Shown here piece after piece: positions 23,955 to 27,443 of a stretch of 64,000 bases of DNA (positions within the stretch are counted from its first letter, which is position 1; each line of letters starts with the position of its first letter). The DNA is taken from the NCBI RefSeq assembly GCF_046105845.1, contig NZ_CP151004.1; one strand, written 5' to 3'. Source of the stretch: Escherichia coli. Its GTDB lineage: Bacteria; Pseudomonadota; Gammaproteobacteria; Enterobacterales; Enterobacteriaceae. Under the pieces are notes generated by a model. That model made no database searches and was not told the origin of the DNA. It saw only the letters and a list, made by a program, of their open reading frames with translations. A program made the translations under genes and the position numbers.

Positions 23955-24039
23955 TTTATTAACGCGATTGTAAAACTGCCGGTTTTCCTCGTTTACAACG
24001 CGTGCGCTGGACATTACCATCCTCCTCTGCGATTTATCA

Positions 24040-24176
24040 TCGCAACCAAACGACTCGGGGTGCCCTTCTGCGTGAAGGCTGAGAAATACCCGTATCACCT
24101 GATCTGGATAATGCCAGCGTAGGGAAGTCACGGACCACCAGGTCATTGCTTCTTCACGTTATGGCAGGAGCAAACT
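24040..24176 (+). ncRNA. TPP (thi-box) riboswitch in the thiM leader
   Basis: Contains ctggggtgcccttctgcgtgaaggctgagaaatacccgtatcacctgatctggataatgccagcgtaggga immediately upstream of thiM. Confidence 0.9.
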
Positions 24177-24965
24177 ATGCAAGTCGACCTGCTGAGTTCC
24201 GCGCAATCTGCGCACGCGTTACACCTTTTTCACCAACATTCCCCTCTTGTGCACTGCATGACCAACGATGTGGTGCAAACCTTTACTGCCAATACCTTGC
24301 TGGCGCTCGGTGCATCGCCAGCGATGGTTATCGAAACCGAAGAGGCCAGTCAGTTTGCGGCTATCGCCAGTGCGTTGCTGATTAACGTTGGCACGCTGAC
24401 GCAGCCACGCGCACAGGCGATGCGTGCCGCCGTTGAACAGGCAAAACGCTCTCAAACACCCTGGACGCTTGATCCAGTAGCGGTGGGTGCACTCGACTAT
24501 CGCCGCCGTTTTTGTCTGGAACTTCTGTCTCATAAGCCAACCGCCATACGTGGTAATGCTTCGGAAATCATGGCATTAGCTGGCATTGCTAATGGCGGAC
24601 GGGGAGTGGATACCACTGACGCCGCAGCTAATGCGATACCCGCTGCACAAACACTGGCACGGGAAACTGGCGCAATCGTCGTGGTCACAGGCGAGGTGGA
24701 TTATGTTACCGATGGTCATTGCACCGTTGGCATTCACGGTGGCGATCCGCTAATGACCAAAGTGGTAGGAACTGGCTGTGCATTATCGGCGGTTGTCGCT
24801 GCCTGTTGTGCGTTACCAGGCGATACGCTGGAAAATATCGCATCTGCCTGTCACTGGATGAAACAAGCCGGAGAACGCGCAGTCGCCAGAAGCGAGGGGC
24901 CAGGCAGTTTTGTTCCACATTTCCTTGATGCGCTCTGGCAATTGACGCAGGAGGTGCAGGCGTGA
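24177..24965 (+). CDS. thiM: Hydroxyethylthiazole kinase
   Basis: 262 aa; follows the thi-box. Confidence 0.95.
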
Positions 24966-25762
24966 AACGAATTAACGCTCTGACGATTGCTGGTACTGAT
25001 CCGAGTGGTGGTGCGGGGATTCAGGCCGATCTTAAAACCTTCTCGGCACTTGGCGCTTATGGTTGCTCAGTGATTACTGCACTGGTGGCGCAAAATACCC
25101 GTGGCGTACAGTCGGTGTATCGCATTGAGCCTGATTTTGTCGCCGCCCAGCTCGATTCGGTGTTCAGCGATGTGCGAATCGATACCACTAAAATCGGTAT
25201 GTTGGCGGAAACCGATATTGTTGAAGCGGTGGCAGAACGGTTGCAACGTTATCAGATCCAAAACGTGGTACTCGACACCGTTATGCTGGCAAAAAGCGGC
25301 GACCCGCTGCTTTCACCTTCGGCGGTTGCTACGCTGCGCAGTCGATTATTGCCACAGGTTTCATTAATAACGCCAAACTTGCCCGAAGCTGCCGCCTTGC
25401 TCGACGCGCCACACGCGCGCACCGAACAGGAAATGCTGGAACAAGGGCGATCGCTGTTGGCGATGGGCTGTGGCGCAGTGCTAATGAAAGGTGGTCATCT
25501 GGATGATGAGCAAAGCCCGGACTGGCTGTTTACTCGTGAGGGGGAACAACGATTTACTGCACCGCGCATTATGACCAAAAACACCCACGGCACTGGTTGT
25601 ACGCTCTCTGCGGCGTTGGCTGCACTACGCCCGCGCCATACAAACTGGGCTGACACCGTACAGGAGGCAAAAAGCTGGCTTTCATCGGCGTTAGCCCAGG
25701 CCGACACGCTGGAAGTTGGTCACGGTATTGGTCCGGTTCACCACTTCCACGCCTGGTGGTGA
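24962..25762 (+). CDS. thiD: Hydroxymethylpyrimidine/phosphomethylpyrimidine kinase
   Basis: 266 aa; 4-bp overlap with thiM. Confidence 0.95.
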
Positions 25763-25817
25763 GCACCGTACTATAGCTGCTTTGGTTATTGTCAGCCTTT
25801 GGCGCTGACATTCAGGG

Positions 25818-26645
25818 ATGAAACCAATGCAACTGAGAATCACCAGTCGAAAAAAATTCACCGCTTTATTATGCGCTCTTGGGCTAATTTCCATCGTTGC
25901 AATTTATCCGCGTCAGACGGTGAATTTTTTCTACTCGACAGCAATTCAGATTAAAGACTACATCCACTTCTACGGTTATCGTCCGGTCAAATCTTTTGCT
26001 ATTCGCATTCCTGCCAGTTACACCATTCATGGTATTGATGTTTCACGCTGGCAGGAGCGAATCGACTGGCAGCGGGTGGCAAAAATGCGCGATAACGGTA
26101 TTCGCTTGCAGTTTGCCTTTATCAAGGCGACGGAAGGCGAAAAGCTGGTGGACCCCTATTTTTCGCGTAACTGGCAACTAAGCCGCGAAAATGGCCTGCT
26201 GCGCGGGGCGTATCATTATTTCTCCCCGTCAGTATCCGCTTCAGTTCAGGCGCGATTATTTCTGCAAACGGTGGATTTCTCACAAGACGATTTCCCTGCG
26301 GTACTGGACGTAGAAGAGCGAGGAAAATTATCGGCAAAAGAATTACGTAAGCGGGTAAGTCAGTGGCTAAAAATGGTCGAAAAAAGTACGGGAAAAAAGC
26401 CGATTATTTACTCAGGAGCCGTTTTTTATCACACCAATCTGGCGGGCTATTTCAATGAATATCCGTGGTGGGTGGCTCACTATTATCAACGTCGTCCGGA
26501 CAATGACGGCATGGCCTGGCGCTTCTGGCAGCATTCCGACCGTGGACAGGTAGATGGCATTAATGGTCCGGTGGATTTTAATGTGTTTAATGGCACGGTG
26601 GAGGAGTTGCAGGCATTCGTTGATGGGATGAAAGAAACGCCTTAA
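25818..26645 (+). CDS. yegX: GH25-family lysozyme-like muramidase with N-terminal membrane anchor
   Basis: 275-aa ORF (alternative start 25827); GH25-like IDVSRWQERIDWQRV. Confidence 0.8.
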   Translation: MKPMQLRITSRKKFTALLCALGLISIVAIYPRQTVNFFYSTAIQIKDYIHFYGYRPVKSFAIRIPASYTIHGIDVSRWQERIDWQRVAKMRDNGIRLQFAFIKATEGEKLVDPYFSRNWQLSRENGLLRGAYHYFSPSVSASVQARLFLQTVDFSQDDFPAVLDVEERGKLSAKELRKRVSQWLKMVEKSTGKKPIIYSGAVFYHTNLAGYFNEYPWWVAHYYQRRPDNDGMAWRFWQHSDRGQVDGINGPVDFNVFNGTVEELQAFVDGMKETP

Positions 26646-26696
26646 ATAAGAAGCAGTGATATACTCCCACCAGACTCCCTGGCAGGAAAAAGACAA

Positions 26697-27443
26697 ATGG
26701 AACAAGCGCATACCCAGCTGATTGCCCAACTGAACGAACGTATTTTAGCGGCGGATAACACGCCGCTTTATATTAAGTTTGCCGAAACGGTAAAAAATGC
26801 CGTGCGCAGCGGGGTGCTGGAGCATGGCAATATTTTGCCCGGTGAGCGTGATTTAAGTCAGTTAACCGGCGTTTCGCGCATTACGGTGCGCAAGGCGATG
26901 CAGGCGCTGGAAGAAGAGGGCGTGGTGACGCGTTCGCGTGGTTACGGCACGCAGATCAACAACATCTTCGAATACTCGTTGAAAGAAGCGCGAGGTTTTT
27001 CTCAGCAGGTGGTATTGCGCGGGAAAAAGCCCGATACGCTATGGGTTAACAAGCGTGTCGTGAAATGTCCCGAAGAAGTCGCGCAGCAGCTAGCGGTCGA
27101 AGCAGGAAGTAATGTCTTTTTGCTTAAGCGTATTCGCTATGTCGATGAAGAAGCGGTATCAATTGAGGAATCGTGGGTTCCTGCGCATTTAATTCATGAT
27201 GTTGATGCCATCGGAATTTCTCTTTATGACTACTTCCGCAGCCAGCACATTTACCCACAACGTACGCGTTCCCGCGTTAGCGCCCGGATGCCGGATGCCG
27301 AGTTTCAGTCACATATTCAGTTAGATAGCAAAATACCGGTGCTGGTGATCAAGCAAGTGGCGCTTGACCAACAGCAACGGCCTATTGAGTACAGCATTAG
27401 CCACTGTCGCAGCGATCTATACGTTTTTGTGTGCGAGGAGTAG
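26697..27443 (+). CDS. yegW: GntR/HutC-family transcriptional regulator
   Basis: 248 aa; N-terminal winged-helix region, C-terminal UTRA-like region. Confidence 0.85.
   Translation: MEQAHTQLIAQLNERILAADNTPLYIKFAETVKNAVRSGVLEHGNILPGERDLSQLTGVSRITVRKAMQALEEEGVVTRSRGYGTQINNIFEYSLKEARGFSQQVVLRGKKPDTLWVNKRVVKCPEEVAQQLAVEAGSNVFLLKRIRYVDEEAVSIEESWVPAHLIHDVDAIGISLYDYFRSQHIYPQRTRSRVSARMPDAEFQSHIQLDSKIPVLVIKQVALDQQQRPIEYSISHCRSDLYVFVCEE

Follow-up and report, generated by a model that had tools for sequence, protein, structure and literature searches.

Lysozymes of glycoside hydrolase family 25 (GH25) act through a neighbouring-group mechanism. Two of them, Cellosyl (the N-acetylmuramidase M1 of Streptomyces coelicolor, 1JFX) and the Bacillus anthracis enzyme 2WAG, share family and fold with the YegX protein of Escherichia coli and are 32-33% identical to it. 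Both are secreted, soluble proteins of Gram-positive bacteria whose solved chains begin at the barrel; beyond this common part, YegX has a basic tail and a membrane helix, joined to the barrel by a conserved spacer of some 40 residues, and it is predicted to work in a Gram-negative periplasm. Phage endolysins of the same family (Psm of Clostridium phage phiSM101, 4KRT; the TP-84 endolysin; Cpl-1) have a catalytic domain 31-37% identical to that of YegX, whose barrel and acidic residues they share. They are encoded beside a holin (as seen for TP-84), bear C-terminal wall-binding domains (SH3 in Psm, by annotation) and have no N-terminal anchor, whereas YegX has neither lysis-cassette neighbours nor a wall-binding domain.

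In terms of layout, the best analogy for a membrane-tethered enzyme acting on nascent strands is MltG (YceG), an inner-membrane-anchored endolytic lytic transglycosylase of E. coli that leaves 1,6-anhydroMurNAc ends. MltG resembles YegX in joining a single N-terminal membrane helix to a periplasmic glycan-cleaving domain; however, its fold is unrelated, and YegX would be expected to leave reducing MurNAc ends instead. Members of the YegX subfamily proper are the anchored GH25 proteins of Sphingobacteriales, Chitinophagales and Saprospiraceae. Annotated as "glycoside hydrolase family 25" or "lysozyme", these proteins have the same tail-helix-spacer-GH25 layout and are 42-53% identical to YegX over nearly the full length, spacer included. 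They differ from YegX in that their tails are longer and much more basic, their anchors more hydrophobic and their genomic contexts different.

The yegX gene analysed here lies in a 64,000-nt stretch of E. coli contig NZ_CP151004.1 (the window). An earlier note, made from the letters of this DNA, had described a GH25 muramidase-like gene next to thiMD and had suggested that its product could be a domesticated endolysin or a housekeeping peptidoglycan hydrolase. In our reading, to which we give a probability of about 70%, YegX is an exported GH25 muramidase, most likely tethered to the inner membrane, encoded by an old chromosomal gene and probably expressed in part by read-through from thiMD. 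The features on which the analysis is built are listed below. Residue numbers refer throughout to the 272-aa product made from the RefSeq start.

24046..24142, plus strand: TPP riboswitch, 5' of thiM (Rfam RF00059; 71.2 bits, gathering score 54.3; E=2.8e-13)
24177-24965, plus strand: thiM (Pfam HK)
24962-25762, plus strand: thiD (Pfam Phos_pyr_kin)
25763..25826, plus strand: thiD-yegX spacer, 64 nt, terminator-like site absent
25814..25818, plus strand: Shine-Dalgarno-like AGGGA, read from the sequence, 8 nt before the ATG at 25827
25827..26645, plus strand: yegX coding sequence as started in RefSeq, 272 aa and a stop codon
25857..25907, plus strand: hydrophobic helix FTALLCALGLISIVAIY, residues 11-27, predicted N-in signal anchor
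25908..26021, plus strand: subfamily-specific spacer, residues 28-65, comprising a helix (28-47) and two short strands
26034..26561, plus strand: GH25 catalytic domain, residues 70-245 (73-248 in the 275-aa open reading frame), from Pfam and Foldseek
26037..26039, plus strand: codon of D71, equivalent to Cellosyl D9
26307..26315, plus strand: codons of D161-V162-E163, the D-x-E motif, equivalent to Cellosyl D98/E100
26574..26576, plus strand: codon of D250, equivalent to Cellosyl D198
26697-27443, plus strand: yegW, GntR regulator, downstream of yegX

In the list of open reading frames, yegX appears as an uninterrupted frame from 25818 to 26645 on the plus strand (275 aa, ATG to stop). RefSeq annotates an 819-nt gene, "yegX, glycoside hydrolase family 25 protein", in a syntenic E. 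coli genome and has it start at the second ATG; WP_409023913.1 is the identical 272-aa product. The ATG at 25818 is in frame, three codons 5' of the one at 25827. Because the AGGGA motif overlaps the first ATG, the second is favoured, and from the sequence 25827 is the more probable start. Both the gene and its assignment to GH25 are existing database annotation and were already known. A search of NCBIfam returned no model naming YegX.

The GH25 likeness noticed in the earlier note was confirmed, by matches far stronger than chance would give. Pfam profile PF01183 (Glyco_hydro_25) matches YegX with E=1.8e-54 and 185.2 bits (gathering score 27), covering profile positions 1-180 of 180. YegX also matches the sequences of the solved GH25 lysozymes 2wag (4.6e-33), 4kru (1.3e-28) and 1jfx (7.8e-28), which are the B. 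anthracis GH25 enzyme, Psm of phage phiSM101 and Streptomyces Cellosyl, respectively. In the HMMER alignment to 1jfx, residues D71, D161, E163 and D250 fall on Cellosyl D9, D98, E100 and D198, the catalytic acidic residues of the family. These catalytic Asp and Glu residues, whose lack of conservation the earlier note had named as a ground for refutation, are all found among the 12 columns that are invariant in 116 homologs. The AlphaFold model of YegX, made with an alignment of 116 sequences, has a pLDDT of 94.7 and a pTM of 0.87. When this predicted model was used as a Foldseek query against the PDB, the 19 best matches were all GH25; 1jfx (9.9e-19), 2wag (3.1e-18) and Psm (4krt/4kru) led the list with E values from 1e-19 to 1e-16, and fungal GH25 enzymes, SleM and LytC were matched as well. 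The best superpositions gave TM-scores, normalised to the target, of 0.82-0.85 and an rmsd of 1.8-2.3 A. Judged from sequence and predicted structure, YegX belongs to GH25 (Chalaropsis-type) with its active-site residues intact. We also considered a lytic transglycosylase and discarded it: no SLT, MltA, YceG or RlpA-type domain is present, Glyco_hydro_25 is the only Pfam domain and the structural neighbours are all GH25.

Ahead of the catalytic domain, residues 1-10 of YegX are basic (R4, R8, K9 and K10), with RITSRKK directly preceding the helix. The segment FTALLCALGLISIVAIY has a Kyte-Doolittle value of 2.38 over 17 residues and is the sole N-terminal hydrophobic stretch of the protein, in agreement with the single segment claimed at first reading. 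Net charge is +4 ahead of the helix and +2 behind it. In the AlphaFold model a helix spanning residues 8-26 is followed by a second helix (28-47), by short strands at 51-54 and 59-62 and then by the barrel; the block-mean pLDDT across the N-terminal helices and the spacer is 89-98. Within the spacer, P62 is invariant and Y51 and I59 are nearly so (alignment A1). Since GH25 chains from the PDB align to YegX only from about residue 65, the spacer is specific to the YegX subfamily; its family median is 31 residues, compared to about 40 in YegX itself.

These traits are conserved in the family. Of 114 representative homologs, 99 have a hydrophobic segment at the N-terminus that scores 1.8 or more. 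In a set of 147 homologs, the uncharged segments measure 20 residues in the median and have a Kyte-Doolittle value of 2.41, net charge is +6 before the segment and +1 after it, and 82% of the proteins obey the positive-inside rule. This pattern predicts an N-in/C-out orientation, which would place the enzyme in the periplasm. A lipoprotein was considered as well. The lipobox, [LVI][ASTVI][GAS]C, closes the signal sequence of such proteins; YegX has none, the only Cys of the segment lying in A-L-L-C with Leu at -1, and this Cys is missing in the Salmonella and P0004 orthologs.

The alternative that holds up best is that the N-terminal segment serves as a Sec signal peptide and is cleaved off, and that mature YegX, from about residue 26 on, is a soluble, untethered periplasmic lysozyme. 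The enteric sequences show the classic n-h-c layout, with basic residues at 4-10, some 15 hydrophobic residues and, closing the segment, I-V-A with I-Y-P behind it, where signal peptidase I could cut. Relatives have V-I-A/V-Y-P or F-V-A/V-Y-P at this point, positions -3 and -1 being small or aliphatic, and the uncharged stretch of enteric YegX is 18 residues long, towards the lower end of the range seen in the family. In most family members, however, the segment is strongly hydrophobic and measures 19-23 residues. In Sphingobacteriales it is followed by S-P-F-Y-Y-G, where a Pro in position +1 would keep signal peptidase I from cutting; moreover, the stretch just past the helix is retained and is confidently modelled as a continuation of the helix. 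We consider cleavage to be unlikely, uncleaved anchoring being better supported.

If YegX is indeed a tethered muramidase, the basic tail and the hydrophobic helix would direct its export, and the protein would most likely remain in the inner membrane in the N-in/C-out (type II) orientation, with the barrel in the periplasm. With D71, the D161-x-E163 pair and D250 as its catalytic site, the enzyme would cleave peptidoglycan glycan chains there by hydrolysing the beta-1,4 linkage between MurNAc and GlcNAc. The shortness of the tether, one helix and a spacer of some 40 residues, points to action near the membrane. Candidate substrates are nascent or uncross-linked strands or turnover fragments; the sacculus would not be dissolved. 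We know of no hydrolytic muramidase described among the cell-wall enzymes of E. coli itself, the glycan cleavers reported being lytic transglycosylases, and for this reason any activity of YegX in vivo is probably low, conditional or confined. An active YegX would generate glycan ends of a different chemistry from lytic transglycosylase products. While the peptidoglycan enzymes of E. coli are very well studied, yegX is a conserved gene of a lysozyme family without an assigned role; its thiamine-linked expression, its Bacteroidota-centred family and its conserved juxtamembrane spacer are what draw attention to it.

The position next to thiMD was verified, thiD ending 64 nt upstream of yegX. A terminator scan of the 64-nt spacer detected no terminator-like site. 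A hairpin in this spacer (TGTCAGC...GCTGACA) was examined as a possible terminator or regulator and set aside, as it has no U-tract and its fold does not exceed shuffled sequences in stability (z=-1.2). RNA-seq data from three EHEC strains, comparing lamb's lettuce medium to M9 glucose, place yegX among the strongest shared down-regulated genes, alongside thiC, thiE, thiF, thiG, thiH and thiD (PMC6729007). Values of log2 fold change in the three strains are -3.75, -6.42 and -3.80 for yegX and -3.74, -5.56 and -4.09 for thiD (PMC6729007). These parallel changes suggest read-through from the thiMD operon with its TPP riboswitch. Co-transcription of thiM, thiD and yegX, with the riboswitch as upstream controller, is probable, and E. 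coli yegX would be transcribed at least in part by this route. A literature search for an explicit statement of thiM-thiD-yegX co-transcription found none. A genomic SELEX table places a site for the RpoD holoenzyme in the thiD-yegX interval (PMC3946193); judging from this site, yegX may also own a (weak) promoter.

In Salmonella, the homolog has rcnB on one side and the riboswitch on the other, which puts it upstream of thiM. Because it sits upstream of the riboswitch, coupling to this element would be specific to Escherichia rather than family-wide, and it is perhaps incidental. On the other side of yegX, past yegW, the yegV, yegU and yegT genes lie on the opposite strand. Control of yegX by the yegW product (GgaR) was considered and rejected: the GgaR study reports yegTUV as its single ChIP target (PMC10819704), and this paper does not figure among those found to mention yegX.

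Of 5426 complete E. coli genomes, 5424 contain the yegX region, making yegX a core gene of this species; the same flanks recur in 5420 complete genomes, with thiD and yegW in every row listed. Outside E. coli and Shigella the picture is more scattered. The E. albertii protein is 90% identical to YegX. The E. fergusonii form (77%) makes up a cluster of only 6 sequences, and the Salmonella form (68%) is represented by 33 distinct sequences from subsp. indica, salamae and some enterica. Next in line, at 54-57% identity, are proteins encoded beside fnr and hemN in uncultured bacteria. The HemN sequences adjoining them are 74-78% identical to those of Gulbenkiania, Aquitalea, Vogesella and Chromobacterium, suggesting a Chromobacteriaceae-like lineage. 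Beyond this group the named matches are almost wholly from Bacteroidota. Among the best 80 listed loci of species representatives, 78 come from Sphingobacteriales, Chitinophagales, Saprospiraceae, one Prevotellaceae MAG and MAGs labelled Bacteroidota or Bacteroidetes; the scan of species-representative contigs comprises at least 600 stretches, and absence of a taxon from the list, other Escherichia included, does not equate with absence of the gene. The tail-helix-spacer-GH25 layout thus recurs mostly in Bacteroidota, with further instances in the Chromobacteriaceae-like lineage, in scattered Salmonella and in E. fergusonii.

A neighbour-joining tree was made from 162 sequences and 218 columns and rooted on two phage endolysins. 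Out of 200 bootstrap replicates, 199 recovered the enteric clade and 198 the grouping of enteric with Chromobacteriaceae-like sequences. The sister group holding named Bacteroidota was recovered in 143 replicates and a two-level nesting among Bacteroidota in 122, so that placement within Bacteroidota has 61-72% support. The tree is compatible with a transfer into Proteobacteria out of a family centred on Bacteroidota, support for this direction being only moderate. As for the timing, dN to the Salmonella homolog is 0.22 for yegX and 0.22 for thiM; given this equality, long residence and subsequent repeated loss fits at least as well as recent transfer. In the Bacteroidota loci, an enolase-superfamily gene adjoins the homolog in 20 of 78 cases (its best NCBIfam match, L-Ala-D/L-Glu epimerase, is below the model cutoff) and an M20 dipeptidase gene does so in 13 of 78. 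These neighbours offer a weak hint at a murein-recycling context, the loci being related and hence not independent.

The boldest reading of these data would be that YegX is an active, tethered true lysozyme that came by horizontal transfer from the Bacteroidota-centred family into the Escherichia/Salmonella lineage and, in E. coli, became wired to thiamine status through read-through of thiMD with its TPP riboswitch. We regard this as quite unlikely. If true, YegX would be, to our knowledge, the first hydrolytic muramidase among the wall enzymes of E. coli itself, and thiamine limitation would raise the level of a cell-wall hydrolase, be it for wall remodelling or for muropeptide scavenging.

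A further question is whether YegX acts on the cell's own wall at all. One could envisage a GH25 fold with no such role, encoded by a marginal, horizontally acquired gene or directed at another substrate or at the walls of other bacteria. This possibility draws on the patchy spread of the gene: E. coli is the only species in which it is core, E. albertii has it too, E. fergusonii rarely carries it and some Salmonella do, while none of the best 120 of 6655 matches is a protein named as coming from Klebsiella, Citrobacter or Enterobacter. Shigella records include truncated forms, and yegX has a G+C content of 47.4%, whereas the window averages 50.7% and thiM and thiD have 55-56%. In addition, the Keio deletion mutant is viable, indicating that yegX is non-essential; in screens with boron compounds its phenotypes are mild, namely a low sensitivity to boric acid and a growth delay on epetraborole. 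A literature search for enzymatic, localisation or phenotype studies of YegX returned only screen and expression tables. They include a 2.3-fold induction of yegX in ground beef and an intergenic mutation in an evolved strain.

Several observations weigh on the opposite side. Values of dN/dS (Nei-Gojobori) for yegX are 0.069 relative to E. albertii, 0.060 relative to an E. fergusonii-like sequence and 0.089 relative to a divergent E. coli; those of the neighbouring thiM gene are 0.089-0.118. By this sequence measure yegX evolves under purifying selection, and a dN/dS of 0.06-0.09 combined with retention in 5424 of 5426 genomes argues for a selected function. All of the catalytic residues are intact. 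Furthermore, a protein confined to membrane or periplasm would need a secretion route to reach other bacteria, and none is encoded nearby. We find it unlikely that YegX lacks a role in the wall of its own cell. As to the housekeeping hydrolase proposed in the earlier note, the chromosomal side of that proposal is supported by the same retention and dN/dS figures, but the word "housekeeping" is not, given a viable deletion and a distribution limited to Escherichia and scattered relatives.

The flanks were inspected for phage remnants, as the earlier note had advised. In a syntenic complete RefSeq genome, the 15 kb to each side of yegX are free of phage and lysis genes, in line with the note's placement of the gene outside a phage lysis cassette; these intervals hold metG, apbC, yehABCDE, rcnABR, thiMD, yegWVUT, fbaB and gatYZABCD. 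When 50,697 phage records were searched by tblastn, no match exceeded 40.5% identity to YegX. This top value belongs to an unverified faecal scaffold of 5.6 kb, and the protein encoded there has a basic tail like those of Bacteroidota. Verified phages (TP-84, Bacillus phages, phiSM101) infect Gram-positive hosts and match at 30-39%, over the catalytic domain only. Chromosomal homologs, by comparison, are 45-57% identical to YegX over the full length. A record named "Acinetobacter phage MD-2021a" does carry a yegX gene, but this record is really an Acinetobacter chromosomal contig with dinP and creBCD. We conclude that yegX is not a prophage remnant but an old chromosomal resident of Escherichia.

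GH25 is common among endolysins, and PHROG endolysin families match the YegX catalytic domain (phrog_291, 1.1e-46). The membrane domain of SAR (signal-arrest-release) endolysins is weakly hydrophobic, rich in Gly, Ala and Ser, and able to leave the bilayer. In its share of small residues (G/A/S/T/C), the YegX helix core, with 41%, is intermediate between the family median of 25%, taken over the whole uncharged segment, and the 53-59% of the SAR domains from P1 Lyz and R21. Even so, with holin, spanin and other phage genes absent from the flanks, phage matches at or below 40.5% (the verified ones from Gram-positive hosts and restricted to the catalytic domain), a sole yegX-bearing "phage" record that is chromosomal, nearest relatives that are chromosomal too (Bacteroidota, Neisseriales) and have stable, strongly hydrophobic anchors, and purifying selection acting since the split of E. 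coli and E. albertii, it is very unlikely that YegX is a domesticated phage endolysin, possibly SAR-like, that is held inactive in the membrane and released on depolarisation to lyse the cell. The PHROG collection contains one more family related to YegX, phrog_23704, a fragment family of 134 positions with no function assigned, which matches residues 152-272 with E=2e-82. We did not count it as phage evidence, since it was probably built from chromosomal yegX sequence.

In RNA-seq data published for three EHEC strains (PMC6729007), yegX and thiD show parallel fold changes. The genes concerned lie in the window as follows:

24046-24142, TPP riboswitch
24177-24965, + strand, thiM
24962-25762, + strand, thiD
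25827-26645, + strand, yegX, a GH25 lysozyme-family gene

A terminator scan of the window found no terminator-like site between thiD and yegX. Together with the position of the riboswitch 5' of thiM (riboswitch-to-yegX region, 24046-26645), these data suggest that thiM, thiD and yegX are carried on one transcript, unreported so far, and that a lysozyme-family gene is thus placed under thiamine control.

In those Salmonella lineages that carry a yegX homolog (68% identity; Salmonella enterica contig L001, 5038-9497), yegX and thiMD stand in the opposite order to that in E. coli: the homolog is placed upstream of thiM, with rcnB on one side and the TPP riboswitch on the other, and rcnA/rcnR are missing from this locus. 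In an E. fergusonii-like contig (L002, 2631-8574), the gene following yegX is not yegW as in E. coli; the genes that come next encode a pair of large DUF6493/DUF7824/DUF7825 proteins and one SWIM-domain protein.

More distant YegX-like genes, with 54-57% identity, adjoin fnr and hemN in uncultured bacteria (L003, 3446-7265; L084, 3049-6293) whose HemN is nearest to that of Chromobacteriaceae. These genes form one clade with the enteric ones (99% bootstrap). Among the 78 loci listed for Bacteroidota (L006-L083), 20 have the GH25 gene next to a member of the enolase superfamily that resembles dipeptide epimerases (its best match, L-Ala-D/L-Glu epimerase, is below the cutoff), and 13 have it next to an M20 dipeptidase. 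Such a neighbourhood may represent a murein-peptide recycling context; examples are:

L047, 7413-8540
L025, 1185-2633

Within E. coli, the segment spanning 25700-26700 of the window reaches at best 98.2% identity among 5,426 complete genomes, most of which fall at 95-97%, and the exact YegX protein is found on 3 contigs only; the yegX allele of the window is therefore uncommon. In the closest complete genome (98.2% identity), at L085 11168-13132, approximately 2.3 kb of additional DNA separates rcnR from the thiM riboswitch; its annotated features are an outer membrane protein, a hypothetical protein and an HTH-like fragment. At the corresponding place, 23955-24045, the window is without this insert. 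In E. coli strain FLI21 (NZ_CP139808.1), three places match the yegX region; one of them, elsewhere on the chromosome, is a partial copy (60% of the query, 95.7% identity) that carries a GH25 protein annotation. A single plasmid-borne match was present in the whole collection.

Residues 152-272 of YegX are matched by PHROG family 23704 (phrog_23704; 2e-82), and a membrane-anchored GH25 gene is present in a record named 'Acinetobacter phage MD-2021a' (L087, CAKLQH020000037.1). The latter is a chromosomal contig with dinP, creBCD and hsrA; both the record and the PHROG family look like bacterial sequence that got into phage resources.
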